In this document: piece by piece, positions 2,682 to 63,787 of the stretch
Layout: the number at the start of each line of letters is the position of its first letter
How positions within the stretch are numbered: position 1 is the stretch's first letter
Assembly (NCBI GenBank): GCA_963800895.1
Contig: CAWDDA010000022.1
Span: 9,243-73,242 of the forward strand
Direction: 5' to 3'
Length of the DNA stretch: 64,000 nucleotides
DNA from: an uncultured Acidobacteriota bacterium
Lineage (GTDB): Bacteria > Acidobacteriota > Blastocatellia > RBC074
Program-made: the position numbers and the translations under genes
Notes under the pieces: generated by a model
Database searches by the model: none
Told to the model about the DNA's origin: nothing
What the model saw: only the letters and a program-made list of their open reading frames with translations

Positions 2682-2903
2682 AGCGCACCGCCTTGCACGC
2701 TCGCGATAACGCGGCCGTTCATGTCGCGCAGCTCAACGCACGGCGCTTTCAGGCAGGCGGTCGCGAATCGTCCGCGGCGTCGCCATGTCGTGATGCAGGC
2801 TCTGATACTCGCCGCTTGCGCCGTAGATTTCGCGAATGGTGTAGGTAAGGCGGTGCCCGTCTTCGAAATTCCGAAAGGCACGTTGGTGTTTTTCGTCGGT
2901 CAT
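2678..2903 (-). pseudogene. Small hypothetical protein, one frame break
   Basis: MTDEKHQRAFRNFEDGHRLTYTIREIYGASGEYQSLHHDMA... continues in a second frame as ...TACLKAPCVELRDMNGRVIASVQGGAL. The stop overlaps the next start (ATGA at 2678-2681). Confidence 0.4.
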
Positions 2904-9406: not shown

Positions 9407-10207
9407 TCACGCGGCTTCATTCCAGGACGGCGCCGAGAAGGCGGCGAAGCGCGTCGCCGTCCAGTACTCGTCGTCGAATTTCATGCCGACCTCGCAGCCG
9501 GCGCGCATCAGCAGCGTGACGATGCGCGACTTCTCGTTGGCCGAGATCATGGCCGCCGAATAGGAGATGCAGATCGCGACCCGCTCGCCGCTTTCGCGGT
9601 CCTCGACGCAGACCGCAATCGACTCGACGCCGGGCAGGCTCTCGTCGGTCGCCTGCGACCAGCCCTTCTCGCGCACCAGCGCGAGCACGGCAGGAGATCG
9701 TCGACGGTTTGCGGCGCGTTGGGCGACGGCGGCTGCAACGGCGCCGGATAGAGCGCGCGCACCGCATCGTCATCGAGTCGCGCCAGCATCGCGCGGCCGG
9801 TCGAGGAGCAGAAGGCCGGCAGCCGGTCGCCGGGCGAGGTCACCACGCGCAGCGGCTTGCTGCCCGGCCGCATCCGCAGGCCCAGCACATCGGTGCCGTC
9901 GAGGATCGCGACGTAACCCGTGTGGCCGGTCGCCTTGGCGATCCGCGCCAGCGCCTCGTCGGCGACCACGCTCAGGGTCGAATTGACCCTATGACGCCGC
10001 GAGGTCTCGAAGATCAGGTTGCCGACGCAGTAGCCCGAGGGCTGCATCGGTGGTGGCGAGCAGGCCGGTCTCGGCCATGGCTTTCAGCAGTCGCGACGAG
10101 GAACTCTTGGGCAGCGCCAGAAGCTGCGCGACTTCGGTCACGGACAGCACGCTGCGCTCCGGCGTGAACAGCCGGAGCACGCGTGCGACGTTGCCGACCG
10201 AATTCAT
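9407..10207 (-). pseudogene. IclR-family transcriptional regulator, two frame breaks
   Basis: MNSVGNVARVLRLFTPERSVLSVTEVAQLLALPKSSSSRLLKAMAETGLL (winged HTH) / GYCVGNLIFETSRRHRVNSTLSVVADEALARIAKATGHTGYVAILDGTDVLGLRMRPGSKPLRVVTSPGDRLPAFCSSTGRAMLARL / ...LALVREKGWSQATDESLPGVESIAVCVED. It is divergent from the ABC transporter genes. Confidence 0.75.
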
Positions 10208-10385: not shown

Positions 10386-12027
10386 ATGATGGTCATGGGG
10401 ATCAAGGCGGATCGGCGCACATTCCTGAAACTTTCGTCGGGAGCCGGCGCGCCGGCGCTGGGCGGCTTGGGCGCGCCTGCCGGCGCGGGCGCAGGCCGGC
10501 TCGACGCTGACCGTCGCCTGGGACACCGACATCGACAGCCTCGACCCGCACGTCTTCAAGTCGGTCGGCGGCTATGCCGTGCAGTGCAACCTCTACGACC
10601 CGATCGTCTCGTGGAAGGTGCGGCCGGTCGAGGGCACCAAGGGCCTGTCGCGCTCCTTCCCCAACGAGTTCGAGGGCAGCCTCGCCGAATCCTGGACCTT
10701 CGAGCGCGACGGCGCGACGATCGTGCTGAAGGTCCGGCCGGGCATGAAGTTCCCGAGCGGCCGGCCGGTCGATGCCGCGGCGCTCAAGTATTCGCTCGAC
10801 CGCGCGCTGCAGTCGCCGGGCTACATGCGGTTCATCATGCCGCGCATGATCCAGGTCTCCAAGCCGGAGGAGATCGTGGTGCGCGATCCATGCACCATCG
10901 CCCTCGACATGAAGGGGCCGACGCCGCAGCACGATGGTGCTGAACTTCCTGTCGCTGATGACCATCACCGCGCTCGATCCCGAGCTGGTGAAGCCGAACG
11001 CGACCGAGAAGGACCCGTGGGCCGCCGACTGGGCCAAGCGCAATGCCGGCGGGCTCCGGCCCCTACACGCTCGCCGCCAACACGCCGGGCGTCGAGGTCG
11101 TGCTCGAGGCGCGCAAGGACCATTGGCGCGGCAAGCCCGCGTTCCAGAAGATCGTCCTGAAGTTCGTGCCCAACGAGGCCGACCGCGTGCTGCTGCTGAA
11201 GCGCAAGGCGGTCGACCTGGTGATCGGCCGGCCGGGCCTGTCGCCGCGCAACATCAAGACCTTCGAGAACGAGAAGGACTTCCGCATCGTCACGGTGCCG
11301 GACACGACCTGCCACTGGCTGGCGATGAACCAGACCAAGAAGCCGCTCGACAACGTCAAGGTGCGGCAGGCGATCAACTACGCCATCCCGATCGCCGCGA
11401 TCGTGCCCAACGTGCTGATGGGCTACGGCTCGGCCATGAAGTCGCCGGTGCCGGCGCTGACGCCCGGCCACGACGCCAACCTCTCGCCCTACAAGTACGA
11501 TCTCGACAAGGCGCAAGGCGCTGATGAAGGAGGCCGGCGTCACCACGCCGGTCACGCTCGACCTCGCCGTGCGCATCGGCTGGCAGCCGCACGAGGAGGC
11601 CGCGGTGTGGATCCAGCGCGAGCTCGAGAAGATCGGCTTCAAGATCAACATCACGCGCCAGACCGACGCCACCTTCCGCCAGCTCGCCACCAAGGGCGAC
11701 TTGCAGCTTTCGATCGAGACCTGGCAGTCGTGGGTGAACGATCCGTTCTTCCACATGGTGCCGCTGTTCCATTCGACCTCGAAGGGCACCAACACGGCGT
11801 TCTACAGCAACCCGGCCCTGGACAAGATCCTCGACGAGAACTACCACGAGCCCAACGCCGAGAAGCGCCTGGCGGCCGCCAGGGCAGCCCAGAAGATCGT
11901 CATCGACGACGCCGTCTGGGGCATGCTCTGGTACGACAACTGGACGCGCGTGATGCGCAACGACCTGGTCGGCGTCGAGAAGCGCTGGGACACCTTCGAG
12001 CGCTTCACGTCGCTCAAGACCGGCTGA
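10386..12027 (+). pseudogene. ABC transporter substrate-binding protein (family 5, peptide/nickel type) with Tat signal, four +1 frame breaks
   Basis: GGAGGG RBS; MMVMGIKADRRTFLKLSSGAGA (twin-arginine motif). The reading frame steps 0>1>2>0>1 near 10490, 10925, 11050 and 11515, and each segment is typical SBP_bac_5 sequence (...AESWTFERDGATIVLKVRPGMKFPSGRPVDAAALKYSLDR...; ...HWLAMNQTKKPLDNVKVRQAINYAI...; ...AFYSNPALDKILDE...). Confidence 0.8.
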
Positions 12028-12042
12028 ACGGCAGCCAGCACG

Positions 12043-12556
12043 GTGGGTTTCCTCGGTTACTTCCTGCGCCGACTGTCGCTCGTCATCCCGACCCTGCTGG
12101 GCGTGACCATCATCACGTTCACGCTCACCTATGTCCTGCCGGGCAATCCGGCGGTCGTGAAGGCGGGGCCGCTGGTCTCGCCCGAAGTGGTGAAGGAGCT
12201 GGAGAAGGAGATGGGCCTCGACCAGCCGGCCTGGGTGCAATACTGGCGCTACATCTCGGGCGTCGCGCGCGGCGATCTCGGCCAGAGCTCGTCGACCGGA
12301 CGGCCGGTGCTGGAGGATTTCAGGCAGCGCCTGCCGGCGACGCTCGAGCTCACCCTGGCGAGCCTGCTGATCGCCCTCGTCATCGGCATCCCGCTCGGCG
12401 TGCAATCGGCCGTCCATCGCGACACCGCGATCGACCATATCGGCCGCATCGTCGGCGTCGCGGGCGTCGCCATGCCGACCTTCTGGACCGGCCTGCTGGC
12501 GCTCTACGTCTTCTTCTATCTGCTGGGCGTCGCGCCGCCGCCGTTGGGGCGATTGG
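12043..12556 (+). pseudogene. ABC transporter permease (DppB/OppB-like), 3'-truncated at the block junction
   Basis: MGFLGYFLRRLSLVIPTLLGVTIITFTLTYVLPGNPA...LELTLASLLIALVIGIPLGV...FWTGLLALYVFFYLLGVAPPPLGRL. Permease sequence ends abruptly at ~12,556, about halfway through a normal ~310-aa protein. Confidence 0.8.
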
Positions 12557-12570
12557 CAAGCGGTCACTCA
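12550..12570. other. Breakpoint between two unrelated sequence blocks
   Basis: A truncated permease gene abuts the interior of a PpiD-like gene. Composition, gene phylogenetic flavour, frame-break density and repeat content all change at this point. Confidence 0.8.
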
Positions 12571-14108
12571 GACTTCGAGGTGAAGACATCGGTCAGTACG
12601 AGGCCAATCTCAGGAAAGCCGCTGCTCTCACACGATTCCGCGTTTACCTCACATCAGCTGAACAGGTATCGGACCGTGAAATTGAGCGGACGTTCAAACA
12701 CGACAACACCAAGGTTGAAGTCTCCTACGCCATAATTGATCTCGAAAAGGTCCGCAGCAAGTTCAATCCGAATGATGCGGAGCTGCTCGCGTATTACGAA
12801 CAGCATAAGGATAAGTTCAAAGCTAACGAGACCGTAAGGAAAGTTGATTACATCTTCATCCCGACCGATGAAGTCGCGAAGACTCTCAAGTTCACCGATG
12901 AAGAGCTCAAGGCGCAGTACGATCAGAACAAGCAATTTGAACCGCGAGCGAGCATCATCAAACTCAACGTTCTCACGCCCAATGATGAAACGACTGTCAA
13001 AGCAAAAATAGATCAACTCAGCCAGAGAGTTCGGGGAGCTCCAGGCATTCCGGCAGAGGATTTTGCTGCAGTCGCCAAGGGCAATTCTCAGGATCCCTCA
13101 GCAGCCAAAGGCGGTGATCTGGGCTTTATAAAGAAGGAGCCCAACAACACTCAGGACTGGAAGCAGCGCGCCCACAACATTGAGCCGGGCAATATCGACG
13201 GACCGTTCCGTCATGGCAGTGCCTATTACATTATGAAGGTCACTGAGAAACGCGAAGTTCCTTTCGCGGCCATGAGAGCGACTGTCGAGGCTGGGCATCG
13301 CAATCGTCAGGGTTTCGCAAAGGCATCACAGATAGCGGACAAAGCTTACGAGAAGGCCACCGAATATAAGGACCTCAAGAAAGCCGCCGAGGAGATAGCG
13401 AAGGAACTCAACATTGGGGTCGACAAAGTATTCCGGACTACTCCTTTCTTCAAGAATGGCGATTCACTTCCGGGTTGGGGCAATGTCCCGCAGTTTGAAT
13501 CGACTGTTTCTGAGCTGAAGAAGGGGGAGATCGGTGACAAGGTCGCAATTCCCGACGGTCACGCGATTCCGCAGGTGGTTGACGAGAGAACGAACGGAGC
13601 GCAGCTGACATTTGATGAAGCGCGTAATCAGGTTGAACAGGAATTGCGCAAAGAACGCGAGCCGGACGTCGCGAAACAACGCGCAACCGAGATCGTTACC
13701 ACAGCCAAGACTCCTGCAGAATTCGCGTCAATGTTGAAGGCCGAAGGAATCGAGACGAAGACGAGCACCAATCTTGATAATCTTCAGGCGCCTGGTGCGG
13801 CTTCGGGTGGACTGCAGTTGTTGCAACAGGCAAGGACCACCGTCATCAATCTCAAGGAAGGCGAGATCTCCCAGATCCCAATAAAGTGGGGAGCAGGATA
13901 TCTGATCTTCGCGGCTACCAAGCGAACCGAACCTGATATGTCCAAGCTCACAACGGACCGGGAAGCGCTTCGCACGAAGATCCTGCAGGAGCGTCAGATG
14001 GCGGTCTATGACAGTTACATCAAGGCTGCCCGCAAACGCTACGAGCAGGACGGCTCTCTCAAGATCTACCAGGACCGGATCGACAATTTCCTGAATTCAG
14101 GACAGTAG
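12557..14108 (+). pseudogene. PpiD/SurA-like periplasmic peptidyl-prolyl isomerase, 5'-truncated at the junction
   Basis: The C-terminal ~515 aa of tracked ORF 11043-14108. It contains a parvulin core, AAVAKGNSQDPSAAKGGDLGFIKK...GPFRHGSAYYIMKVTEKRE, flanked by chaperone-type helical regions. No N-terminal TM or start is present. Confidence 0.8.
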
Positions 14109-14109
14109 C

Positions 14110-14256
14110 GAAGAAGGGGGTCGGGGGTCGGGGACCAGGGGTCGGGGTATGGAGTTCAAGCTTTAGCTTGCTGCTTCCAACCGAGCTATCGAAGAGCAAG
14201 CTAAAGCTTGAACTCCGTACCCCGACCCCTGGTCCCCGACCCCCGACCCCTTCTTC
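14110..14256. repeat. Heptamer-armed hairpin element E1 (G-rich arms + conserved core)
   Basis: GAAGAAGGGGGTCGGGGGTCGGGGACCAGGGGTCGGGGTAT-GGAGTTCAAGCTTTAGCTTGCT-22 nt loop-AGCAAGCTAAAGCTTGAACTCC-complement of the left arm. It lies between two convergent stop codons (14106-08 and 14259-61). Confidence 0.95.
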
Positions 14257-17102: not shown

Positions 17103-17113
17103 GCTGAGGCATG

Positions 17114-17182
17114 ACGTTCAAAGCTTCAGCTTTCCTCCTGTTCAGGCGAGCTAACCAACCAGCAAGCTATAGTTTGAAACTC
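17114..17182. repeat. Decayed copy of the conserved core hairpin
   Basis: GTTCAAAGCTTCAGCTT...AGCAAGCTATAGTTTGAAAC resembles GGAGTTCAAGCTTTAGCTT...AGCAAGCTAAAGCTTGAACTCC. It has several substitutions and no heptamer arms. Confidence 0.5.
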
Positions 17183-17287
17183 TATGTGTCCACTCCCTGA
17201 TTGATTTAGCGAATAAAGTGGATTACGATTCGTGACGTTGAAGCATCCTTCGAAAGGCGCATCACTTTTTACCCATTACAATCAGGC

Positions 17288-20770: not shown

Positions 20771-20892
20771 GAAGGTGCTGAGTGCTGAGTGCTGAGTGCT
20801 GAGTATGGAGTTCAAGCTTTAGCTTGCTTTCACAAGTTCGATGCTAGAGCCAAGCTGAACTCAGCACTCAGCACTCAGCACTCAGCACCTTC
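20771..20892. repeat. Hairpin element E2 (GTGCTGA x4 arms, core with right-side deletion)
   Basis: GAAG-(GTGCTGA)x4-GTAT-GGAGTTCAAGCTTTAGCTTGCT...AGAGCCAAGCTGAACTC-(AGCACTC)x3-AGCAC-CTTC. Confidence 0.9.
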
Positions 20893-22791: not shown

Positions 22792-22822
22792 GCCTCTCAT
22801 CTCCCGGTGAGAGGCTTTTTTT
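22792..22822 (+). terminator. Rho-independent terminator
   Basis: GCCTCTCA-tctcccgg-TGAGAGGC followed by TTTTTTT. Confidence 0.7.
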
Positions 22823-23016
22823 AAGAAGGGGTCGGGGGTCGGGCGAGCCGGGGGCCGGGAATCAGAATATTTTCCATTTGTCATTTTAGATTTGTCATTT
22901 GTTATTGATTCCGATTCGTCCTCAAGGTGAATGACAAATGAGAAATGACAATTGGGAAATCCTCTACTTCCCGATCCCCCGACCCCCGACCCCCGACCCC
23001 CGGCCCCCTCTTCTTC
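22823..23016. repeat. Nested hairpin element E3 (outer G-rich heptamers, inner TGTCATT heptamers, no conserved core)
   Basis: AAGAAGGGGTCGGGGGTCGGGCGAGCCGGGGGCCGGG ... CCATTTGTCATTTTAGATTTGTCATTTGTTATT ... AATGACAAATGAGAAATGACAATTGG ... CCCGATCCCCCGACCCCCGACCCCCGACCCCCGGCCCCCTCTTCTTC. Confidence 0.9.
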
Positions 23017-25955: not shown

Positions 25956-25957
25956 GT

Positions 25958-25992
25958 CCCGGGAGCGCCAGGCTGAGCCTGGCGCTCCCAGG
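25958..25992. repeat. Type-B palindrome (GGGAGCGCC motif)
   Basis: CCCGGGAGCGCCAGGC-TGA-GCCTGGCGCTCCCAGG. The same motif recurs at 58951-59020. Confidence 0.7.
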
Positions 25993-25998
25993 TAAGTG

Positions 25999-28801: not shown

Positions 28802-28869
28802 CCTTCGTTGCCTTTGTTTCCTTCTGTTAATAAGAGGATCACAACAGAAGGCAACAAAGGCAACGAAGG
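28802..28869. repeat. 27-nt inverted repeat built from GGCAAC-containing short repeats
   Basis: CCTTCGTTGCCTTTGTTTCCTTCTGTT-14 nt-AACAGAAGGCAACAAAGGCAACGAAGG (26/27 complementary). Confidence 0.75.
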
Positions 28870-28923: not shown

Positions 28924-29014
28924 GGAGACATGGCCGAGCGGCTGAAGGCGGCGGTTTGCTAAACCGTTATAGGGGCTAAAACTCCTATCGAAGGTTCGAA
29001 TCCTTCTGTCTCCG
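28924..29014 (+). tRNA. tRNA-Ser (anticodon GCU)
   Basis: Manual cloverleaf: acceptor GGAGACA/TGTCTCC; 3-bp D stem GCC/GGC with GG in the loop; anticodon stem GCGGT/ACCGT; loop TT-GCT-AA; long variable arm (ATAGGGG...CTCCTAT); T arm GAAGG-TTCGAAT-CCTTC; discriminator G. Confidence 0.9.
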
Positions 29015-30266: not shown

Positions 30267-30387
30267 GAAAGTGCTGAGTGCTGAGTGCTGGTTGGAGTTC
30301 AAACTTGGCTTGCTCGTATCATTCGAGTTACGTGACCGCAGGCTAAAGATTGAAGTCCATACTCAGCACTCAGCACTCAGCACTTTC
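30267..30387. repeat. Hairpin element E4 (GTGCTGA x3 arms, diverged core)
   Basis: Starts directly after stop TAA: GAAA-(GTGCTGA)x2-GTGCTGG-TT-GGAGTTCAAACTTGGCTTGCT...GCAGGCTAAAGATTGAAGTCC-ATACTCAGCACTCAGCACTCAGCAC-TTTC. Confidence 0.9.
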
Positions 30388-30518: not shown

Positions 30519-30553
30519 CCTCGCGTTGGAGACGGCGCGAGGATTTTTATTTT
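30519..30553 (+). terminator. Leader hairpin + U-run (attenuator / RBS sequestrator)
   Basis: CCTCGCG-ttggagacgg-CGCGAGG then ATTTTTATTTT running into the ATG at 30554. The only GAGG upstream of the start lies within the 3' stem arm. Confidence 0.55.
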
Positions 30554-32408: not shown

Positions 32409-32556
<148 letters not shown>

Positions 32557-35500: not shown

Positions 35501-36279
35501 GAGCTTTTGGCTGATGCGAAGCAGTTGCTTGAAGAGATCATCGCAAAGAAGTGGTTCAAGGCCCGTGGTGTTTACGCATTCTTTGCAGCAAATTCGAAAG
35601 GTGACGACATTTCAGTTTTCGCCGATGAGACACGACAGGATGAGCTCGCTGTCCTTCATACGTTGCGGCAGCAGTTAGACAAGGGACCGTCTCAACCGAA
35701 CCTTGCGCTGTCAGATTTCATCGCACCGTTTGACACCGGGCTCAAGGATCACATTGGTCTCTTTGCGGTAACTACAGGTCTTGGCGTTGACGAGTTGTGC
35801 GCGCGTTTCGAGGCAGATCATGACGATTACAATTCGATCATGTACGAAGGCCCTTGCTGACCGCCTGGCCGAAGCCTTTGCAGAGTTTGCTCACAAGAAG
35901 GCGAGAGACGCATGGCGGATACGGGCTAAGCGAAAACTTGAGCACCGATGAACTCATCAAAGAAAAGTATCGAGGCATCCGGCCCGCTCCTGGCTATCCC
36001 GCATGCCCTGATCATACTGAGAAGAAAGCGATCTTTGAGCTGCTGAATGCCGAGTCCAATGCAAGTGTCCGTTTGACGGAGAACTATGCCGTACTGCCGG
36101 CGAGCTCGGTCTGTGGCCTCTATTTTGCGCACCCGGAATCGCGCTATTTCACCGTTGGAAAGATCGATCGCGATCAGGTGGCAGACTATGAGCGGCGCAA
36201 AGGAATGACCCGCCGCGAAGTGGAACTCTGGCTCTCGCCCAATCTCGCATATGAACCGGAACGAGTGTTAAGCATGTAG
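32573..36279 (+). pseudogene. metH: Cobalamin-dependent methionine synthase MetH, two +1 frame breaks (35843 and ~35913); start codon uncertain
   Basis: All MetH modules are present: Hcy domain ([11 protein letters not shown]...[11 protein letters not shown]), pterin-binding, B12-binding ([11 protein letters not shown]), and AdoMet activation ([18 protein letters not shown]). Between the tracked ORFs the intermediate frame reads [24 protein letters not shown]. The conserved N-terminus ([20 protein letters not shown]) lies upstream of the first ATG (32639). Confidence 0.9.
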
Positions 36280-36290
36280 GAGTGTGTATA

Positions 36291-36427
36291 GAGTGCTGAG
36301 TGCTGAGTGCTGAGTGCTGAGTATGGAGTTCAAGCTTTAGCTTGCTGGTGTGGCATTCGAATGTGCACGACAGCAAGCTAAAGCTTGAACTCCATACTCA
36401 GCACTCAGCACTCAGCACTCAGCACTC
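36291..36427. repeat. Hairpin element E6 (GTGCTGA x4 arms + perfect core)
   Basis: GA-(GTGCTGA)x4-GTAT-GGAGTTCAAGCTTTAGCTTGCT-25 nt-AGCAAGCTAAAGCTTGAACTCC-ATAC-(TCAGCAC)x4-TC. It ends 8 nt before the ATG at 36436. Confidence 0.95.
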
Positions 36428-36435
36428 TCCTCTTT

Positions 36436-37941
36436 ATGAATTGTTTGTTTTCAGTTCTGGTAGTGGCGGCACTTTCTTTTATGCCTCAAACGCCGTTGCG
36501 GTTCGAGGTAACTGTCAGCGCGCAGCTTAGCCCTCAGGCGCGTGATGGTCGTTTGTTCATTATTCTCGCGAAACCAGATGCCGGCGAGCCAAGGCGGGTT
36601 GCCGGGAATCCAGGAATGAACGCGCCACGAATGTTTGCGCGTGATGTAGCACGTATCTCTGAGAATGAGGCGGGCGTGATCGATGACAAGTGTGTCGCGT
36701 TTCCTCTGGAGGGCCTGCGAGATATCGAACCTGGCGAATACAACGTTCAGGCAGTCTACGACACCAATAGAGACTTGAAGGGTCTCAATTCTCCGGGGAA
36801 TATCGTTAGCCGTCCGCAGCGAATGAAGCTCGATGCAGCACGGACAGGGACCATTCGCATCACACTGAGCGAACAGATTCCAGTAGAAACATTGCCTCCC
36901 AACACTGACCTCCTGCGATTTATCAAGTTCGAATCCCCGATACTTTCAAAGTTCCGCGGACGTCCGACTTATCTGCGGGCTGGAATTCTGTTACCGCGCG
37001 ACCACGCTCGCGAGACCACACGCCGCTATCCCCTGAGAGTACACATTGGAGGTTATGGATCGCGTTACACGCAAGTCTCGCAGTTTCTGACTGCCGATGA
37101 TGCTGCTGGACCGCGAAGTCTGTGGCTCGCGAATGATACTCCTCGAATGATTCTCGTTCATCTCGACGGTGCCGGACCTTATGGTGATCCATATCAGGTG
37201 AACTCGGAGAACAACGGCCCATACGGCGATGCATTGACCGGTGAACTTATTCCTTTTATTGAGCGGGAGTTTCGAGGCAATGGCAGGCGTGTTCTGGACG
37301 GAGGGTCTACCGGTGGTTGGGTATCGCTTGCGCTCCAGATCTTTTATCCCGACTTTTTCAGTGGCGCATGGTCATCTTGTCCCGATGGCGTTGATTTCCG
37401 CGGATTCCAGCTTGTCGACATCTACCGCGACGCGAACGCATACGTGAATGATAATGGAGCCGAACGGCCCGCCGCGCGTAATGTGAAGGGAGACATCCGC
37501 TACACAATGCGCCACGAATGCAGCCTCGAGAATGTGCTCGGTCGTGGCGACAGCTGGACGCGTTCGGGAGGGCAATGGGGAGCATGGAATGCCGTCTATG
37601 GACCGCGCGGTGCCGATATGCTTCCAGTTCCCTTATGGGACCCGAAGACCGGCGCTCTCAATCGCAGTGTGGTTGAACATTGGAAGAAGTATGACCTGCG
37701 GCTGTACGTTGAGCAGAATTCACCAAAGCTCGCCGAGAAGCTCAAAGGCAGGCTCAACATATGGATGGGAGATGCTGACGATTACTTTCTCAATAATGCG
37801 TTGCATCTCTTTGACGATGCGCTCAAGCGACTGAGTCCGTCACCGGAAGCGAGAATTTTCTTCAAGCCCGGACAGGGCCATTGCTGGCAGGGAATTAGTC
37901 AACGCGAAATGATGCTAGAGATGGCCGCGGCCACAAAATGA
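36436..37941 (+). CDS. Secreted esterase (enterochelin-esterase-like alpha/beta hydrolase)
   Basis: Start at MNCLFSVLVVAALSF (signal). GGSTGGW nucleophile elbow, plus the ...LVHLDGAGPYGDPYQVNSENNGPYGDALTGELIPFIE region typical of putative esterases. Confidence 0.7.
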   Translation: MNCLFSVLVVAALSFMPQTPLRFEVTVSAQLSPQARDGRLFIILAKPDAGEPRRVAGNPGMNAPRMFARDVARISENEAGVIDDKCVAFPLEGLRDIEPGEYNVQAVYDTNRDLKGLNSPGNIVSRPQRMKLDAARTGTIRITLSEQIPVETLPPNTDLLRFIKFESPILSKFRGRPTYLRAGILLPRDHARETTRRYPLRVHIGGYGSRYTQVSQFLTADDAAGPRSLWLANDTPRMILVHLDGAGPYGDPYQVNSENNGPYGDALTGELIPFIEREFRGNGRRVLDGGSTGGWVSLALQIFYPDFFSGAWSSCPDGVDFRGFQLVDIYRDANAYVNDNGAERPAARNVKGDIRYTMRHECSLENVLGRGDSWTRSGGQWGAWNAVYGPRGADMLPVPLWDPKTGALNRSVVEHWKKYDLRLYVEQNSPKLAEKLKGRLNIWMGDADDYFLNNALHLFDDALKRLSPSPEARIFFKPGQGHCWQGISQREMMLEMAAATK

Positions 37942-38092
37942 AGTAGTGGTCAGTGGCCAGTGGCCAGTGGCCAGAGGTAGTGACCAGTGGCCAGTAATGC
38001 AAATCACTGACCACCAAGCACTACAACTGACCACTGACCACTGACCACTGACCACTGACCACTGACCACTGACCACTGACCACTGACCACTG
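37942..38092. repeat. Hairpin element E7 (AGTGGCC/AGTGGTC vs GACCACT heptamers, asymmetric copy number)
   Basis: The left arm has ~7 imperfect units (AGTGGTC AGTGGCC AGTGGCC AGTGGCC AGAGGT AGTGACC AGTGGCC). The right arm has 9 perfect GACCACT units (38029-38091). It ends 2 nt before the rluB ATG. Confidence 0.9.
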
Positions 38093-38094
38093 TC

Positions 38095-38862: not shown

Positions 38863-38900
38863 AAAAGAAGGAACCGCAGAGAGCGCGGTTCCTTCTTTTC
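38863..38900 (+). terminator. Terminator-like hairpin sharing the GAA-AGAAGG clamp of the large elements
   Basis: GAAAAGAAGGAACCGC-agaga-GCGGTTCCTTCTTTTC directly after the rluB stop. No separate U-run follows the stem. Confidence 0.5.
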
Positions 38901-38994
38901 AACTCAAAGCCCCAACCTCCAAACCAATCCTTGACAATAACTCCCCGAAACGCTTAGAGTTATGTCTAAGCATATTGAGAAGTGATCTGACAAC

Positions 38995-42080: not shown

Positions 42081-43017
42081 ATGAAAAGAAGTGGTCTGAT
42101 CTGGATTCTAGTCTTCGCGGGCATTCTTGTAGCCGTCTTTAGTGCCGTGCTCATTATCGGCGCAATCATGATGTCCGAAAGCAGCGGCTTCAGCGGTATT
42201 GGCGGCAGTCGGATTGCGGTCATCCCGGTTGAAGGTGTAATCAACGACGAGATGGCAAAGCGTGTGTCGCGCCATCTAAAGCAATACGCCGAAGACGGCC
42301 GCGTCCGGGCCATCCTTATGAGGGTCGATAGTCCCGGTGGAGGCGTTGCCGCTTCACAGGAGATATACCGCGAAGTCAAACGAACACGGCAGGACAAAGA
42401 AGAAGCTGATTGTTGTATCTATGGGTACTGTGGCGGCATCTGGCGGGTACTACATCGCCTGTCCCGCTGACCATATCCTTGCCAACCCAGGATCTATCAC
42501 AGGTAGCATCGGAGTGATTGCGGAATGGCTGAACGTAAAGGACCTGGTAGGGTGGGCCAAGCTTCGTCCCGAGGTTTTCAAGAGCGGTGAGTTCAAGGAC
42601 ACAGGATCGCCGACACGCGAAATGACAGACCGTGAGCGTCAATATTTCCAGGGGATGATAACTGAGCTCTACAACCAGTTCGTGCGGGCCGTTACCGATG
42701 GACGTAGCGGAAAAAAGAGTCTGGACGAAGAGCAAGTGCGCAAACTGGCAGATGGGCGCGTCTACACCGGCGAGGCGGCGCTGGCAAACGGATTGATCGA
42801 TGAGATCGGAAACTACGAGGACGCGATAAAGCGGACGGCTGCGCTTGCAGGAATAAAGGGAGAACCACAAATTATTACTCCACCGAAGCCGCGTGAAGGT
42901 TTTTCGGTATGGGATCTTCTGGGGCAAACAAAGCTCGAAACGCTGCTTCCGAGTAATCTTCCCGAAGCTATCGGTGAAATCGATACTTCGGTTAGGTTCA
43001 AATACCAATGGAAGTGA
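42081..43017 (+). pseudogene. sppA: Signal peptide peptidase SppA (36K type), one +1 frame break near 42395
   Basis: N-terminal TM, then IAVIPVEGVI...AILMRVDSPGGGVAASQEIYREV / KKKLIVVSMGTVAASGGYYIACPADHILANPGSITGSIGV (Ser nucleophile context) ...GRVYTGEAALANGLIDEIG. Confidence 0.85.
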
Positions 43018-43973: not shown

Positions 43974-44096
43974 GGTACGTGGTACCAAGGTACTGTGTGC
44001 CGTTTGGAGTTCAAGCTTTTAGCTTGCTTCTTACACGCTCGAGTGCAAAGAGCAAGCTAAAGCTTGAACTCCAAACGGTACAAAATGCCTTGGTAC
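43974..44096. repeat. Hairpin element E8 (GGTAC-rich arms + core)
   Basis: Directly after stop TAA: GGTACGTGGTACCAAGGTACTGTGTGCCGTTT-GGAGTTCAAGCTTTTAGCTTGCT-loop-AGCAAGCTAAAGCTTGAACTCC-AAACGGTACAAAATGCCTTGGTAC. It ends 1 nt before the ATG at 44098. Confidence 0.9.
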
Positions 44097-44097
44097 T

Positions 44098-45183
44098 ATG
44101 TACTCTTCCGTGAGGTGGCGTATGAAGCGATACTCGTCTTTTGCTTCTCTAGTCCTCGGCGTCATGTTTTTGAGCACGCTTGCAGTGTATGGTCAGAATC
44201 CAAGCCAGCCGAGCAACAATCCACCAGCGAGGAGTTCTCCCGGTGTCTCCTCGTCTCACACGATACGTGGAAAAGTCTATCTCCCGAGCGGCGCAATGCC
44301 GGATCAACGAATTCGTGTGGTTCTCGAGCTCAACACTGGCGGCGTAGCCTCCGAAGTTTTTACAGATTCGGTAGGAAACTTTGAATTCCGTGGCGTGACA
44401 GCAAACTCATACAAGATCACAGTCCCCTCGGACCACCAGACGTACGAAACGACGTCGGAGATGGTCGAGGTGTATGGCACTTTCGCCAGAACTTTCATCG
44501 TCCAGTTGTACCTGAAAGACAAAGAAAGCGGACTTGGTGTCGCACCCAGGGGAAGGATGCTCAGTGTTGCGGAGATGCAGGAGGTCCCCAAGCCTGCGAA
44601 GAAACTCTACGAGCAGGGCATAAAGAGAGCAAAAGAGGGCAAACCCGCTGATGCCATTCCTCTTTTCGAAAATGCGATCCAGACTTTCCCTGAATATCTT
44701 CTCGCGATCAACAAGCTTGGTGAGCAGTACATGGTGCTCAACAGACTGGATGAGGCGCAGAAGGCATTCGAACGCGCAATCGAAGTGAGCGGAAAGTACC
44801 CTCTCGCGCGGATCAATCTGGGGATGCTCTTCGTCAAACAGAAACAGTATCCTGAAGCGATCAAGCACCTCGAAGAAGCGAACCGCCTCGATGGCGACTT
44901 TCCGATGTGCCACCTCAATCTGGGACTGGCGCTCATGGACTCGACTCCCCCCGATGTCGACCGGGCAGAAAAGGAGCTTCAGCGAGCAATTGAAACGGGA
45001 GGCAAAGAGTTCAGTTACGTCAGACTTTATCTCTTCAATCTCAACATTCGCCGGAACTCACTCGATAAGGCTGCGGGTCAGCTGGAAGCCTATTTGAAGG
45101 AGGCACCCGACGCGACAAATGCTCCGCAGGTGCGGGAGAAACTCAATCAGATCAAGAAGACAATCTCCGAAAAGAAGAAGTAA
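44098..45183 (+). CDS. Secreted CarboxypepD_reg-like + TPR-repeat protein (start possibly 44122)
   Basis: Signal MKRYSSFASLVLGVMFLSTLAVYG; IRGKVYLPSG...DSVGNFEFRGV (carboxypeptidase-regulatory-like fold motif); several TPR-like helices (AIPLFENAIQTFPEYLLAINKLGEQY...). Confidence 0.75.
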   Translation: MYSSVRWRMKRYSSFASLVLGVMFLSTLAVYGQNPSQPSNNPPARSSPGVSSSHTIRGKVYLPSGAMPDQRIRVVLELNTGGVASEVFTDSVGNFEFRGVTANSYKITVPSDHQTYETTSEMVEVYGTFARTFIVQLYLKDKESGLGVAPRGRMLSVAEMQEVPKPAKKLYEQGIKRAKEGKPADAIPLFENAIQTFPEYLLAINKLGEQYMVLNRLDEAQKAFERAIEVSGKYPLARINLGMLFVKQKQYPEAIKHLEEANRLDGDFPMCHLNLGLALMDSTPPDVDRAEKELQRAIETGGKEFSYVRLYLFNLNIRRNSLDKAAGQLEAYLKEAPDATNAPQVREKLNQIKKTISEKKK

Positions 45184-45876: not shown

Positions 45877-46029
45877 GAAGAAGGGGGTCAGGGGATCAGG
45901 GGCCGGGGGTCGGGGTTTGGAGTTCAAGCTTTAGCTTGCTGTTCGCATTCCACCTGCAAAGAGCAAGCTTAAGCTTGAACTCCAAACCCTGGCCCCCGAT
46001 CCCCGACCCCCGGTCCCCTCGATTTCTTC
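45877..46029. repeat. Hairpin element E9 (G-rich heptamer arms + core)
   Basis: Directly after stop TGA: GAAGAAGGGGGTCAGGGGATCAGGGGCCGGGGGTCGGGGTTT-GGAGTTCAAGCTTTAGCTTGCT-loop-AGCAAGCTTAAGCTTGAACTCC-AAACCCTGGCCCCCGATCCCCGACCCCCGGTCCCCTCgatTTCTTC. Confidence 0.95.
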
Positions 46030-50043: not shown

Positions 50044-50167
50044 GAAAGTGCTGAGTGCTGAGTGCTGAGTGCTGAGTATGGAGCTCAAGCTTTTAGCTTG
50101 CTGTCGTACAATCGGTAATTTATGAGCAAGCTAGAAGCTTGAACTCCAGACTCAGCACTCAGCATTC
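50044..50167. repeat. Hairpin element E10 (GTGCTGA arms + core) between convergent genes
   Basis: Directly after stop TAA: GAAA-(GTGCTGA)x4-GTAT-GGAGCTCAAGCTTTTAGCTTGCT-loop-AGCAAGCTAGAAGCTTGAACTCC-AGACTCAGCACTCAGCATTC. The ppa stop codon (50152-54) lies inside the right arm. Confidence 0.95.
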
Positions 50168-50703
50168 AGGCGGACAGTTCCACTTGCGTCCTTGTAGAGT
50201 TCGATCGCCTTCACGATGATATCCAGTGCTTCGACACGGCCCATGAAGCGTTCGACTTTCACTTCCTTGAGCTCCAGAGCCTTGTAGTCTTCGAAGAACC
50301 GTCTCAGTGCCTTTAAACGGTGTTCTGGGAGTTCTGAAATGTCACGAAAATCGCGATACTCAGGATCGTCGGCATGGACTGCGATGATCTTATCGTCCTC
50401 TTCATTCTGATCGACCATCTGCATAACGCCAATGGTCTTTGCACGCACTATGCATAGTGGAACGACCTCGACTTGCCCGAGCACGAGCACATCCAGAGGA
50501 TCTTTGTCGTCACAATATGTTCTCGGAATGAAACCGTAATTGGCAGGATAGTGGACGGCGCTATAAAGCAGTCTGTCGACTTTCAACAGCCCCGTAACCT
50601 TATCGAGTTCGTATTTGACTCTCGAATCGATAGGAATCTCGATGATCGCGTTGCATATCTCGGGAGCGTGGGGGCCGATATCGACATCGTGCCAAGGATT
50701 CAT
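50152..50703 (-). CDS. ppa: Inorganic pyrophosphatase (family I)
   Basis: [15 protein letters not shown]...[24 protein letters not shown]...DDKIIAV are the canonical family I PPase motifs. Confidence 0.9.
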
Positions 50704-54683: not shown

Positions 54684-54723
54684 GACAGCGGATAGCTTGG
54701 AGGGCACGAGCCAGGATGTCAAA

Positions 54724-54926
54724 TCAGGGGTTAGGGATCAGAGGTCAGGGGCCAGTGGTATAGGACCAAAGCATTTGTCATTTATCATTTGTCATTCGCT
54801 TGGCTTGGACTCAAATAACAAATGACAAATGACAAATGACAAATGCTAAATGTCTTGGTCCTATACTCCTGATCCCTAACCCCTAACCCTTCCCCTGACC
54901 CCTGATCCCCGACCCCCGATCCCCTC
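54724..54926. repeat. Three-tier nested hairpin element E11
   Basis: Outer G-rich heptamers (TCAGGGG TTAGGGA TCAGAGG TCAGGGG... vs ...CCCTAACCCCTAACCCTTCCCCTGACCCCTGATCCCCGACCCCCGATCCCCTC). A unique 11-bp middle stem TATAGGACCAA/TTGGTCCTATA. Inner TGTCATT/AATGACA heptamers. It abuts the stop (54927-29) of the minus-strand TonB receptor gene. Confidence 0.9.
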
Positions 54927-57900
54927 TTAGAAAACAATCTTCACCCCAAACTGCATGACTCTGGGTCCGCCGATTGTGTTGCTGATCGTGCCAAAGTCAG
55001 TGAGATCCTGGAGGTCATTGGCAGGATTTGCGAAGTTGGCTTGATTGAAGATGTTGAAAATATCCCATCGGAACTCAAGTCCGACGCGTTCAGTGATGGG
55101 CGTGTTCTTCGAGAGACCAAAGTCGAATCGCTTCTGAGACGGTCCTCGGAGGACGTTTCGTCCCAGGTTTCCGAAGCCGAGATTCCCCGGATAACCTCCC
55201 GCAGCAGTCAAAGGCGAGCAGAGAACCGACGCGTTGAAATAACCTGTCGTGATGTCGCTGTTTTGTTGACGCAGTTGGTCGATAGTCCCACAGAGTGATG
55301 GCCGGCCGAATCCGAGACGGTAAAGACCACCAGCTCCAAGACGGAGTGTTCCGTACTGGGAAACATTGCCGACTTCCGGTTCGGCTGAGAAGATCGAGAA
55401 TGGGCTACCCGACTGCACCTGTGCGAACCCGGAGATCTGCCAGCCCTTGAGAAACCCAGAATCGCCGAGCGGAAGCTGATAGACAAAGCTCGCGCTGAAC
55501 CGGTGAGTACGATCGAAGTCCGACACGGCACGATTGCTTTTCAGATTCCGCTGATCTCCCTGGACCACGAATCCAGTGTTAGGTGTATCTGGCTTCCCGC
55601 TTCCAGCCGTGCTTCCCGGATCCGACGAAATGTAGTCCATCGACTTTGACCAGGTATAGAACGTGTTGAACGAGAGTCCTTTTGAGAACCGCTGAGTGAG
55701 TCCCAGTTGCAGGCCGTGATAAATCGAGTTGGCAGAGGACTGCAGAAGTAAAGCTTCCGGCACGTTGAACCCAAGGATTGACCCGCGGGCTTCAAACCCT
55801 AGTAAGGCGCCTGCGGCGTTGCTTAGATTGTAGTCGAGTGCACCACCGAGAGCAGAGTTGGGGAAACCGAACGCGATTCCGCGCCCCCGCTCCCGCTGTG
55901 TGGATGCGGCGCGCAACGGCCCGTTAAGGACATTTGGATTGCCCGTTGACTGAAGCTGCTTCTGATATGCGGCATCGTATGCATCATTGAATCTTTTGAA
56001 GATTGCGTCTGGCGCTGCCGAGCTGTTCAAGTCGTAGCCCTGATTGAACGCGATTGCCTGTAGGAGCTTTGTTCCCTTTGTCCCCACATAGCGCGCTTCT
56101 ACCATCATGTTCTGAGTGAGCTCGTACTGGACTCCAAGATTCCATTGCTGTATGTAAGGTGTCCTAAGATTGCGGTCGACTGACCGGAATTCGAACGTCT
56201 CCGCGACATTGCCCAGCGCCGGAAGACCGGTTGCCAGATCAACCGGATTGTTGGTTCCGTCCGATTGCCGGGTCACGGGCGTGCCGTCGCGAATTACGTA
56301 TGTGCCACCGGTCTGATAAACCATCCGGTTCGGAAGATAGCGATTGAACGGAAGATTGACATCCTGCTGCGAGAAGGCGGTAGTGATCGGAACCTGACGA
56401 GTCGGAGCCGTCACTTCGATTTCCCTCAGGAAGGGATAGTTGCTGAAAATCGTGTTAATGAATGCAGCTGAAGGCCGGTCAAAAAAGAATCCGTACCCTC
56501 CGCGAATAACCAGCTTGTTGCTGCTGAACGGCGAGAATGCAAATCCGAACCGCGGAGCAAAGTTGTTAAGATCCTGACCGTTCAGTGTGTGGTCATTGTC
56601 TGCCTTCAGTGATGTAGCAATCGCGCCGTTGATCGCCGCGAACTCTGTATTTTGCACATTTGCCGGCACGAGGAACGACGCTAAAGGGTTTTCCGGGTTC
56701 GTCAAACCTTCGAAGTCGAAGTTGCCGATCCGCCCGATTCTTCTCTGTAGGCCAGCCGAACCACTCCCAACGGAGTCCCAGGTTGAGGGTCAGGCGGTTG
56801 GAAGCTTTCCAGTCTGTTGCGATATAGGCGCCAAGATCCTGAAAGCGAAAACTCTTGTCAGTAATCCCAAACTGTGTGTCACCTTCGGTCGCACGGCCTG
56901 CAAGAAACTGTGTGAAGTTTTCCCACTTTTCAAATTCAGTGGCCTGTTCTTCCGGCAAGTTCGAATCGTAGCTATGATGTTTGTACTCAAATCCAAATCG
57001 ATAGACGTTCGCTCCACGCGAGTAGGTGACGTTGTCAGAAAAGCTTAGCGTCTTCTGCTGCCGGCGGTTGAACGAGTCATTTGGGCCCGCGAAGGACAGA
57101 TTCGAGAGATTGTTTCGAAAGATATAGTGGCCGAGTCTTCGCGTTGCATTGCTGTCGTCGAAGAACACTGCCGGATTTGGAATCCCAACAGATTCATTTG
57201 TGATCCCAAGAAACGGTTCATCAAGACTACGCGTGTTGTTGAGAAAGAAGTAACCGAAACGAGCTTCATTGATTACCGTCGGACTGAAAGTATGAATGTC
57301 GGATAGGGCAAACGTCCGATTCCTGTCATTCCGCAGAAGTGTGACCGGTGATGCCAGGCTTGAAGGATCGGGAAATGGATCAAATCCCGGGAAATTCGTA
57401 AAGAAAAATACTCCGCTCAGGCGGTTCGCCTCGCTCACTTGTCCATCAAGCCGTGTCGTGAATTGATTTTGCTCGAACTGTGCCGGTTGAACATTCCGCT
57501 GCCGTATCAACGGGTTGCCTCCAGTCCAGGGTGCAACGGTCGTATCCGAGCCCACGCGCGCACCACCCGGGCGCGGCCCTGGAATGAAAAACCCGCCGGT
57601 GACGGGGTTGATTAGATTGAGTAAACGTACGCTCGTCGGTGAAATCTGTGCTTCTGTGAGAGGGAAGGTTGGGTTCAATTGTCTGAAAGCGGCTACGAGA
57701 TTTGCTGGGGTTCGCTCGCCCTGAATCAGAGCGAGAGCCTCGGGAAGAACGCTGATGCTCGATGCAGTCGGAACAAACCCTGTGTCCGCTTTCGTGTATT
57801 GGTAACCGCCGAAGAAGAAGAATTTGTCCGCAATCACGGGGCCGCCTACAGTAAATCCGCCTTCATGCCGTCGCGCCTTTGGCTTGTCGATCCCGTCACG

Positions 57901-58746: not shown

Positions 58747-58950
58747 GGATATTTCTCCTGGCGTCGCGGACTCCTGTGCGCTTTTGGTCGGAGACCGCAA
58801 CCTGAGTTTCAAAAATGCTGATTAATGCTTCTCAAAAGGCTGGTGAATCACCAGACGGCCTGCGAGATTAAACCCCTAAGTTTCGAGACTAGCAGTGGAG
58901 TGTTAAACGCAATTTAGGTGACCGTTAATTCTGTCTTAACAAGGCCGCTC

Positions 58951-59020
58951 CCGGGAGCGCTGGCCTCTGGCCGGCGCTTGATCCCAGGAGACGCGCCGGT
59001 CAGAGACCGGCGCTCCCAGG
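58951..59020. repeat. Type-B inverted repeat (GGGAGCGC motif) in a divergent promoter region
   Basis: CCGGGAGCGCTGGCCTCTGGCCGGCGC-15 nt-GCGCCGGTCAGAGACCGGCGCTCCCAGG. The arms are complementary apart from a few mismatches, and the terminal motif is shared with 25958-25992. Confidence 0.6.
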
Positions 59021-63688: not shown

Positions 63689-63764
63689 CCCTGGATCGAA
63701 TCGAAACCATCGAGATTGGCTACGTATGTTTACTTCCAGTGCGCACGCCCCGAAATTGAAGGTT

Positions 63765-63787
63765 TAGAGTTCAAGCTTTAGCTTGCC
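63765..63787. repeat. Solo left half of the conserved core
   Basis: TAGAGTTCAAGCTTTAGCTTGCC matches GGAGTTCAAGCTTTAGCTTGCT. No complementary right half appears in the following 200 nt. Confidence 0.6.

Follow-up and report, generated by a model that had tools for sequence, protein, structure and literature searches.

Layered extragenic palindromes with REPIN cores at gene ends in the genome of an uncultured acidobacterium

The repetitive extragenic palindromic (REP) sequences of Escherichia coli (REP/BIME) and Pseudomonas (REPINs) are hairpin units of about 20 nt in which the 5' tag is fixed and the stem covaries; they form inverted pairs with a short spacer and occur in many extragenic copies, mostly at gene 3' ends near or overlapping stop codons. 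REPIN-type units are recognised and moved as single-stranded DNA hairpins by a REP-associated tyrosine transposase (RAYT), the gene of which is flanked by the same units, and according to the usual description REPIN/RAYT systems are specific to a lineage and inherited vertically. The tags of classical REPs are GTAG or CGTC, and REPs adjoin or overlap open reading frames (ORFs), the termini of the repeat being able to supply the stop codon (Di Nocera et al. 2013, PMC3733652). Here we describe palindromes of this general kind in a 64,000-nt stretch of DNA from an uncultured soil bacterium of the Acidobacteriota (assembly GCA_963800895.1, contig CAWDDA010000022.1; the whole stretch is referred to as the window), centring on the element that lies between metH and a putative esterase gene (36280-36435). 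The palindromes are layered, with a REPIN enclosed in many of them by arms of tandem heptamers, and we regard it as moderately likely that they are selfish or near-neutral repeated DNA rather than dedicated expression signals.

The features of the REP and REPIN units listed above recur here, and on three contigs of other genomes, L055, L125 and L128, RAYT genes are flanked by units of the same class (L-numbered names denote contigs of other genomes or assemblies). Unlike the described systems, the window units carry the tag GGAGT(T/C), the same REP class, including one exact 21-mer, is found across several phyla, and the window REPIN forms the apex of much longer tandem-heptamer palindromes.

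Tandem heptamers have been described in their own right. In Xanthomonas, GGGAATC heptamers, typically in runs of about 4 units, form 70-75 inverted pairs capable of folding into stem-loops and are strongly biased towards sites near or overlapping the upstream stop codon, with positions conserved between species and varying lengths; these repeats are transcribed and their function is unknown, and the short tandemly repeated repetitive (STRR) sequences of Nostoc and Calothrix have the heptamer unit GGGGAYT (Rehm et al. 2015, PMC4692102). The window repeats share with the Xanthomonas heptamers the 7-nt intergenic units, the inverted pairing, the proximity to stop codons and the conserved position with varying length. 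They differ from the Xanthomonas and cyanobacterial repeats in that several unrelated units coexist in the window, in addition to 8- and 9-mers, and in that the arms are layered, many of them enclosing a REPIN core. No unit of the GGGNATC/GGGGAYT type, prone to form G-quadruplexes, was found in the window: a single class, GGGGTCR, is G-rich and quadruplex-prone, but its unit is a different one, and GTGCTGA, CCACTGA and CATTTGT are not quadruplex-prone. The likeness is one of kind, not of sequence family.

In Beggiatoaceae, Cyanobacteria and Bacteroidetes, arrays of direct TAACTGA heptamers, of the NNNCTGA type, end a few nucleotides before starts that lack a Shine-Dalgarno (SD) sequence, with 169 direct sets and a single indirect one (MacGregor 2015, PMC4679880). 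The array (CCACTGA)12.7-TC-ATG that precedes rluB in the window and the patchy distribution across phyla are reminiscent of these repeats; the window arrays, however, are complementary hairpin arms, not direct arrays without an inverted partner. Miniature inverted-repeat transposable elements (ERIC, Correia/CREE, RUP, Nezha) are comparable as palindromic, non-coding, dispersed sequences of 100-200 nt that are co-transcribed with the flanking genes and polymorphic for presence and absence. In contrast to such elements, neither terminal inverted repeats matching an insertion sequence nor a target-site duplication was found around the window palindromes, and each arm consists mostly of a tandem repeat, the unit type of which differs between copies. 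As to position, E. coli REPs located up to 15 nt from a stop codon stall terminating ribosomes, according to the summary in PMC12306157 of the work of Liang, Rudd and Deutscher (2015). The window stems are likewise stable and lie 0-15 nt past the stop, such that slowed termination and lower upstream output would be expected by analogy; compared with those of the E. coli REPs, they are 3-4 times longer, and two of them also reach the next start codon. To our knowledge, the combination in which layered hairpins of heptamers carry a REPIN as their apex, the swapping of interiors at orthologous sites and the reach of a REP/RAYT class across phyla are new.

The metH-esterase hairpin and its REP units

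The gap between metH and the esterase gene is occupied by a near-perfect hairpin with 63-nt arms (36290-36352 and 36366-36428) that are 97% complementary in the inverted-repeat search and are separated by a 13-nt loop. Each arm includes 4.6 perfect copies of a heptamer, GAGTGCT/GTGCTGA on one side and ACTCAGC on the opposite one (Tandem Repeats Finder: 36291-36322 and 36396-36427, period 7, 100% matches), and the arms enclose the conserved core GTATGGAGTTCAAGCTTTAGCTTGC together with its inverted copy. The predicted minimum free energy of the folded RNA is -132.5 kcal/mol for the focal region (z = -17.5 compared with shuffled sequences). The strong stem begins 10 nt past the metH stop codon and ends 7 nt ahead of the esterase ATG, and weaker predicted outer pairs, GGAG/CTCC and CAUG/UAUG, close the gap fully, with the last metH codons (CAU) pairing with the esterase AUG at the predicted base of the helix. 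The upstream gene is represented by the C-terminal part of metH, in which the Met_synt_B12 C-terminal domain ends at the TAG at 36277-79, and the putative esterase starts at the ATG at 36436-38, its orthologues in L103 and L104 sharing the start ATGAAYTG. The layout of the junction is given below, with the strand in brackets where one applies.

36277..36279 (+): metH stop codon TAG; the element starts at the next base, and the protein tail ...EPERVLSM (stop) is as in L104
36280..36289: outer linker GGAG + TGTGTAT + A; GGAG pairs with CTCC 36428-36431 in the predicted fold
36290..36324: 5' arm, (GAGTGCT / GTGCTGA) x4.6, then GTAT (repeat searches)
36325..36345: 5' REP unit GGAGTTCAAGCTTTAGCTTGC, with tag GGAGTT, stem CAAGC/GCTTG and loop TTTA (repeat families, sequence)
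36346..36372: core spacer and apex, the inner part of which still pairs, leaving the 13-nt loop 36353-36365 (inverted repeats, fold)
36373..36393: 3' REP unit, inverted, GCAAGCTAAAGCTTGAACTCC (repeat families, inverted repeats)
36394..36435: 3' arm, ATAC + (ACTCAGC) x4.6 + pyrimidine-rich end CTCTCCTCTTT (tandem repeats, fold)
36436..36438 (+): esterase start codon ATG, predicted to pair with the metH CAU; this start is common to L103 and L104

The core unit is a short hairpin with a conserved tag and the general form GGAGT(T/C) + C-A-N-N-C + TT(T/C)A + G-N-N-T-G. Among 97 distinct 20-mers that share GGAGT(T/C)C as tag and TT(T/C)A as loop, the 5-bp stem covaries freely, with at least 12 distinct and fully complementary versions (CAAGC/GCTTG, CACGG/CCGTG, CAGCC/GGCTG, CAGGC/GCCTG, CCGGC/GCCGG, CACGC/GCGTG, CCGCC/GGCGG, CAAAC/GTTTG and more). 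A fixed tag and loop combined with a covarying stem is the anatomy of a REP, and two such units in inverted orientation amount to a REPIN. This arrangement, with a short spacer, is found in the focal core, in seven further cores of the window and at many loci in other genomes. The exact 21-mer GGAGTTCAAGCTTTAGCTTGC is present in at least 102 contigs of a species-representative genome collection, which belong to at least six phyla (Acidobacteriota, Verrucomicrobiota, Planctomycetota, KSB1, Calditrichota and others), and the usual layout there is GTTGGAGTTCA-hairpin ... hairpin-TGAACTCCAAC. Head-to-tail REP arrays with periods of 71 nt and about 145 nt were also observed (L004 6240-6510, L051 1008-1937, L084 and L089, the last a Luteolibacter metagenome-assembled genome, MAG). 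The 71-nt spacing of copies in the Luteolibacter MAG brought a CRISPR repeat into consideration; this candidate was rejected because the intervening sequence is repeated too, the arrays being tandem repeats of a longer unit. A literature search with the core sequence returned unrelated primer matches only.

The linkage of these units to a transposase was observed in other genomes. In L055 (Verrucomicrobiae), an ORF for a 201-aa protein (2009-2611) is flanked on both sides by the REPIN core (region 1932-2717). The protein matches the REP-associated tyrosine transposase profile NF047646 of NCBIfam over its full length (E = 1e-20; 74 bits versus a cut-off of 80 bits) and E. coli TnpA-REP (PDB 4ER8; E = 3e-6) in an alignment that matches up the HUH and Tyr motifs, and it is not recognised by Pfam. 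The family of this RAYT comprises about 1,800 members at E <= 1e-20, and look-ups of clusters of its homologues gave no further taxonomic assignment. Two homologues, in L125 (candidate division BRC1; 57% identity; 2380-3145) and in L128 (54% identity; 2380-3300), are flanked by REPs of the same class, the stem in L128 being changed to CCGGC/GCCGG, and a RAYT of the same clade in L027 (7347-7696) likewise has REPs of this class at its flanks. A RAYT-like gene of L001 (28% identity) was discarded as a partner, as it has no flanking REP of this class.

Orthologous junctions in related genomes

Five syntenic contigs (L103, L104, L105, L122 and L124) were reached via homologues of the esterase and of the ppa product, which also mark the organism as an acidobacterium of the Blastocatellia type; exact look-ups of the window's rluB and HIT proteins returned no record. 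At the metH/esterase junction, L105 has a 23-nt spacer with a good SD sequence, AAGAGGAGA, and no element; L103 has the core alone; and L104, like the window, has the core plus GTGCTGA arms. The SD of the L105 spacer is missing from the window gap, and TCTCCTCTT, the exact reverse complement of this SD (L105 7985-7993), adjoins the esterase ATG in the window (36428-36435), a match that may have arisen by chance or may record the copying of flanking sequence in inverted orientation.

At the esterase/rluB junction, L103 has the same CCACTGA hairpin as the window with other unit counts, and L105 has a different hairpin, made of CGCAGAGA octamers and bracketed by TTAA...TTAA, itself part of the palindrome. 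The junction between the genes for a HIT protein and a TPR protein is empty in L124, with 36 nt that include an SD, whereas outer arms of the sequence GGTACGTNGTACC, located directly past the stop codon, are common to L103, L122 and the window. The interiors enclosed by these arms are unrelated sequence in L103, a CATTTGT heptamer hairpin in L122 and a REPIN core in the window; the retention of the same outer arms around swapped interiors speaks for units that enter, or are replaced, at the apex of a hairpin already in place. At the junction that holds the window element starting at 45877, G-rich heptamers and the core are present in three genomes, and in L124 the outer arm is purine-rich, 47 nt long and encloses AGTGGCC heptamers. 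Between the kinase gene and ppa, the arms in L122 consist of 3 and 13 units.

Some elements also encode the ends of genes. The ppa product ends in ...ELYNKTIKV (stop) in L124, which has no element at this site, in ...KEKVLSAEC (stop) in L122 and in ...LNAEC (stop) in the window, and in the latter two GTGCTGA units supply both the final residues and the TGA (L122 10520-10540; window 50152-50175). The L124 tail is shorter as well as different. In L103, metH runs into the REPIN, ending in GMEFRAFSLQAS (stop), and stops on its TAA (9934-9974). It follows from these comparisons that the elements are old, that their unit number and interior vary and that they can run past the ends of genes; the empty sites in L105 and L124 indicate that they are dispensable.

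The hairpin family of the window and its position at gene ends

At least 12 related hairpins are found within 51 kb of sequence with 54% GC, and the family is confined to this part of the window, no member being located to the left of a GC junction near 12.6 kb. A preliminary description of this DNA had treated the elements as a single kind; they are instead layered composites of at least two repeat classes. From the inside out, the layers are a REPIN core or a plain loop, arms of tandem repeats with units of 7-9 nt, and a short segment that is purine-rich on the 5' side and pyrimidine-rich on the 3' side; the outermost palindromic segment differs from locus to locus. The REPIN core is present in 8 of about 13 elements and, wherever present, is the innermost layer. 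The REP census of the 51 kb consists of these 8 cores (one of them degenerate), a solo unit and a REP-like unit, all of which lie between ORFs. The arm units fall into the classes GTGCTGA, GGGGTCR, CATTTGT and CCACTGA, and Tandem Repeats Finder reports a period of 7 and 3-12.7 copies at every heptamer arm, with the arrays in convergent orientation, so that a stem-loop can form. Two hairpins consist of heptamers without a core (37942-38094 and 32429-32556), and two others (22823-23015 and 54723-54926) have two heptamer layers, the outer G-rich and the inner of the CATTTGT class. The elements other than the focal one are as follows.

14110..14256: GAAGAAGG + (GGGGTCG)n + REPIN core + mirror image, with 56-nt arms that are 98% complementary; between convergent genes, 1 nt past a TAG and, on the other side, 2 nt away from the stop of the convergent gene
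17103..17186: degenerate REPIN core that retains a remnant GCTGAG (direct reading); immediately after TGA 17100-02
20771..20892: GAAG + (GTGCTGA)4 + core, the 3' REP of which is decayed, + mirror image (inverted and tandem repeats)
22823..23015: two-layer hairpin without a core, outer layer G-rich, inner layer of CATTTGT heptamers; directly past the T-run terminator 22793-22822
28802..28869: 9-mer hairpin (CCTTTGTTG)3 / (CAACAAAGG)3; upstream of the tRNA 28924-29014
30267..30387: GAAA + (GTGCTGA)3 + variant core + mirror image; 0 nt after TAA, with the terminator 30519-30542 downstream
32409..32556: G-rich remnant (32409-32428), then a CATTTGT/GAGATTT heptamer hairpin without a core; the true stop of the methylenetetrahydrofolate reductase (MTHFR) gene is TAG 32406-08
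37942..38094: heptamers only, about 7 AGTGGCC units versus 12.7 CCACTGA units; spans the interval from the esterase TGA to the rluB ATG
43974..44103: GGTAC-type outer arms around a REPIN core; from the HIT stop TAA to 18 nt before the TPR ATG 44122
45877..46029: GAAGAAGG + G-rich heptamers + REPIN core + mirror image; adjoins a TGA (0 nt) and ends 24 nt short of the ATG 46054
50044..50170: GAAA + (GTGCTGA)4 + core, then a 3' arm of reduced length; adjoins the kinase TAA (0 nt), with the TGA of the convergent ppa (50152-54) within the 3' arm
54723..54926 (-): two-layer hairpin, outer layer G-rich, inner layer CATTTGT; 0 nt after the stop TAA 54927-29 of an outer membrane protein (OMP) gene and 39 nt from the carboxyltransferase ATG 54683
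63761..63786 (+): solitary REP unit GGTTTAGAGTTCAAGCTTTAGCTTGC (repeat family, direct reading)

Besides the 9-mers CCTTTGTTG near the tRNA, other unit lengths were seen in relatives, namely the 8-mers CGCAGAGA and CGCAAAGG (L105 9540-9599 and 4210-4245; L103 12440-12500). A further small repeat family in the window consists of GC-rich hairpins (TCCCGGGAGCGCC...GGCGCTCCC) at 25957-25990 and 58949-58978, the former of which begins 1 nt past a stop codon and takes up the interval as far as the next start, at 25996.

The crowding of element starts against upstream stop codons, reported in the preliminary description, is borne out: when degenerate outer layers are counted, 10 elements start 0-2 nt past a stop codon, and at the 8 same-direction junctions the bias towards the stop side is significant compared with uniform placement in the residual spacer (Fisher p = 0.0015). 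The distance is 0 nt for the elements that start at 30267, 43974, 45877, 50044 and, on the minus strand, 54926, and 0-2 nt for the one at 37942. For three others it depends on the layer that is considered: 10 nt for the strong stem at 36290 and 0 nt with its outer pairs, 16 nt (from TAA) for 20771 and 0 nt with a degenerate outer heptamer remnant, and 20 nt (from the MTHFR stop) for 32429 and 0 nt with the G-rich remnant from 32409. The element 22823-23015 adjoins a canonical terminator, not a stop codon. In unrelated metagenome contigs with the GTGCTGA subfamily (a scan for the arm/core junction that yielded 14 short contigs, mostly broken inside the element), the stop of a long ORF precedes the first GTGCTGA unit by no more than 9 nt in 7 of 13 usable flanks. 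Many stops also lie 0-20 nt from the core in a survey of 129 core hairpins, which can be read only qualitatively because it has no gene calls, includes spurious ORFs in high-GC contigs and contains artefacts at -19/-20 produced by the core's own TAG. Unique, non-repeated hairpins of the window likewise start 0-14 nt after stops, so hairpins at gene ends are a general habit in the window. A stop-proximal position is already documented for REPs and for the Xanthomonas heptamer repeats and is not a new kind of signal.

On the start side, the proposal that elements fill the entire gap up to the next gene applies to two junctions, metH/esterase and esterase/rluB, where the array ends 2 nt before the ATG. 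It does not apply to HIT/TPR, for which a distance of 1 nt had been claimed: the element extends to 44103 and the true ATG lies at 44122, leaving an 18-nt gap with a free SD (GAGGTGG), and the ATG at 44098 that lies inside the arm is bypassed in the gene call for the L103 orthologue, which uses the later ATG. At esterase/rluB, the arms are unequal (12.7 units on the 3' side versus about 7 on the 5' side), the predicted stem ends at 38078, and the last 16 nt of the gap and the rluB AUG are predicted to be unpaired. The accompanying argument that no room is left for a free SD does not hold at HIT/TPR, and elsewhere it carries little weight because an SD-like motif is found within 18 nt upstream of only 9 of the 27 presumed starts between 14 kb and 61 kb of the window; SD-less initiation appears to be common in this organism.

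Direct reading confirms that no U-run follows any of the window elements. Canonical stem-plus-T-run terminators are present separately from them, at 30519-30542 (detected by a scan), 22793-22822 and 38863-38905 (both found by direct reading). The first lies about 130 nt past the element 30267-30387, the second immediately precedes the element at 22823, and the third, with an A-tract, a stem and a T-tract, directly follows rluB and is itself followed by a promoter-like site at 38931-38960. The scan detected neither promoter-like nor terminator-like sites in the two filled gaps and no promoter-like hexamers inside the elements. The 23-nt spacer of L105 leaves no room for a promoter, which argues that metH and the esterase gene form an ancestral operon. 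Taken with the occurrence of a terminator and a promoter-like site only after rluB, these observations suggest co-transcription through the stems, one of two options raised previously, and MTHFR, metH, the esterase gene and rluB are probably one transcription unit that is read through three elements. The other option, that the element itself supplies initiation signals, finds no support, in that the 3' ends of the elements are pyrimidine-rich and resemble an anti-SD (CTCTCCTCTTT-ATG) and the interiors have no promoter-like hexamers. The purine-rich outer segment was considered as a displaced SD of the downstream gene and rejected, because the same segment occurs in elements between convergent genes and after a terminator. 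Searches against Rfam 15, at gathering and at E-value thresholds, yielded no family for the elements: in the window only the tRNA matched, and the element scored only with generic miRNA-hairpin models, far below their thresholds. Effects of the hairpins on RNA stability, processing or translation are plausible by analogy with REPs.

Proposed origin of the palindromes and rival explanations

If the palindromes are selfish or near-neutral, their layers would accumulate in long-lived 'nests' at the 3' ends of genes, for which hairpins at gene ends probably provide the base. New units would enter or replace the apex of the hairpin, perhaps mobilised by a RAYT in this genome, and the copy number of the heptamers in the arms would change by slippage. 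Palindromes would reach the stop codon, and occasionally overrun it and donate one, since no sequence is required there, and on the start side they would stop short wherever an SD or a promoter is needed, reaching the ATG only where the downstream gene lies within an operon and lacks an SD, as in metH-esterase-rluB. Stop adjacency would then result from the gene-end location of the hairpin sites, from the lack of any sequence requirement past the stop, whereas an SD or a promoter must stay before a start, and from the donation of stops by the elements. Inside metH-esterase-rluB, RNA polymerase would read through the stems, and likely side effects, as with REPs, would include a stable 3' hairpin on the processed upstream mRNA, sensitivity to RNase III and slowed upstream termination.

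Several points weigh against this interpretation. A tblastn search of the window found no RAYT, and the tag of the units is GGAG(T), not GTAG or CGTC. In metagenome contigs, nested copies of the form GTGCTGAGTGC-AAGAAG-GTGCTGA interrupt heptamer arrays, which suggests, from the sequences, that arm-plus-linker units may move as a whole, a behaviour that the REPIN model does not predict, and we know of no mechanism by which identical heptamer arms could come to occupy many loci. Relatives with esterases that are only 66-88% identical retain a hairpin at the orthologous junctions, even where the unit has changed (CCACTGA versus CGCAGAGA), and such a persistent hairpin could instead be selected for. 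Finally, the comparison of mismatch types in the arms, which speaks for palindromy at the DNA level (see below), is small, with 62 informative mismatches.

As a rival explanation, the hairpins could be under selection as punctuation of operons at the RNA level. Once transcribed, the 50-70-bp stems would be cleaved by RNase III or would stop 3' exonucleases, thereby uncoupling the stability of adjacent cistrons, and a stem within 15 nt past the stop would slow termination and reduce upstream output, as shown for E. coli REPs. Perfect duplexes of more than 20 bp are established RNase III substrates. Retention of a hairpin at the same junctions in several relatives despite the differing unit would be expected under this explanation, and unique hairpins are also common right after stops in the window. 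The stems 0-2 nt past stops are within the 15-nt range in which, by the account of Liang et al. (2015) given in PMC12306157, ribosomes stall. Yet the junctions without an element, metH/esterase in L105 and HIT/TPR in L124, the presence of the same units between convergent genes and after a terminator, and the free variation in length, unit type and symmetry all argue against a selected function of this kind. Moreover, in the 16 elements with a known sense strand, the arm mismatches comprise 29 G.U and 33 A.C on that strand; with no excess of G.U there is no sign that pairing is kept specifically in the sense transcript, which fits palindromy that is kept or created at the DNA level. We consider operon punctuation rather unlikely. 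A related possibility is that, where the gap is filled, the hairpin serves as a looped-out bridge for translational coupling, the terminating ribosome melting the base of the stem, thereby uncovering the SD-less start one helix width away, and re-initiating there. The stop would lie opposite the start at the base of the stem, with the metH CAU, which precedes the UAG, facing the esterase AUG, and at esterase/rluB the stop UGA would pair with a UCA, the A of which also begins the rluB AUG. This would be a bacterial counterpart of hairpin-bypassing ribosome shunting and split ribosome-binding sites. If correct, which seems unlikely, it would mean that insertions of 150 nt are tolerated inside operons with coupling kept, and it would explain the absence of the L105 SD AAGAGGAGA once the element is present.

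The close fit of most elements to stop codons (0-2 nt), the significance of the stop-side bias and its recurrence in independent metagenome contigs could also be taken to mean that the units are mobile and that their insertion machinery selects the stop codon or the base that follows it, as the preliminary description had suggested. Such targeting is not supported. All three stop codons are used, the following base varies (G, A, C), and direct reading around the elements reveals neither a conserved flanking motif nor a direct target-site duplication. The outermost palindromic segment is not constant among loci, the element at 22823 starts at the T-run of a terminator, the nested copies break heptamer arrays and not stop codons, and ppa and the L103 metH read into the element. 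Unique hairpins are similarly near stops, and purifying selection on the start side alone predicts the bias, so this explanation merits little credence. Still less probable is that the elements are intrinsic terminators without a U-tract, with downstream genes that have their own promoters or mis-called starts. The strong stems at gene ends, the T7 run that follows the L122 orthologue of the 45877 element and the pyrimidine- and T-rich 3' ends would suit terminators. However, canonical terminators are present in addition to the elements, two of them close to 30267-30387 and 22823, the starts of the esterase and rluB are fixed by conserved N-termini, and the spacers, the ancestral metH-esterase spacer of 23 nt among them, have no room for a promoter.

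The quality of the assembly has to be considered as well, given that the window has the appearance of a long-read metagenome assembly. GC content falls abruptly from 0.65-0.70 to 0.48-0.54 at 12500-12700, and the ORF 11043-14108 passes from a truncated SBP_bac_5 domain through an Arg/Pro/Ala-rich stretch of about 350 residues, read out of frame, into a PpiD-like rotamase; the junction, near 12.6 kb, resembles a chimeric join made during assembly or the edge of a foreign island. Four genes are split into two overlapping ORFs, namely metH (35854-35860), the MTHFR fusion (about 32047), an OMP beta-barrel gene (56593-56705) and an S49 peptidase (42337-42470), and the orthologues of the split genes are intact in L103, L105 or L122. 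The splits are either indel errors of a long-read MAG or pseudogenes, and on account of these frameshifts the exact unit counts and the 1-nt bulges of the palindromes may include assembly indels. The frameshifts and the GC junction might seem to make the palindromes themselves sequencing or assembly artefacts. Orthologous elements, however, occupy these junctions in assemblies of independent origin from ENA, JGI and Logan (L103, L104, L122, L108-L121), which confirm the presence and position of the elements, confine the doubt to unit counts and 1-nt bulges and refute an artefact as the full explanation; we attach almost no probability to it.

For genome annotation and assembly, the hairpins have practical consequences. 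They mislead gene callers, as seen in N-terminally extended esterases (P0001), in the L103 metH that continues through the REPIN and in the false starts at 44098 and 36385, and they break short-read assemblies, most metagenome matches ending inside the element. With respect to repeat biology, the locus unites RAYT-linked REPINs and the heptamer repeats of the Xanthomonas and cyanobacterial kind, which have been studied separately, as layers of one palindrome. The swapping of layers at orthologous sites offers a concrete system in which to address the origin and spread of heptamer arms, a question that dates from about 1990. The two filled operon junctions are natural test cases for what happens when ribosomes and RNA polymerase meet stems of 50-70 bp between a stop and a start codon. 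The occurrence of one REP class in multiple phyla, together with a clade of RAYTs of about 201 aa, bears on the view that REPIN/RAYT systems are inherited strictly vertically.

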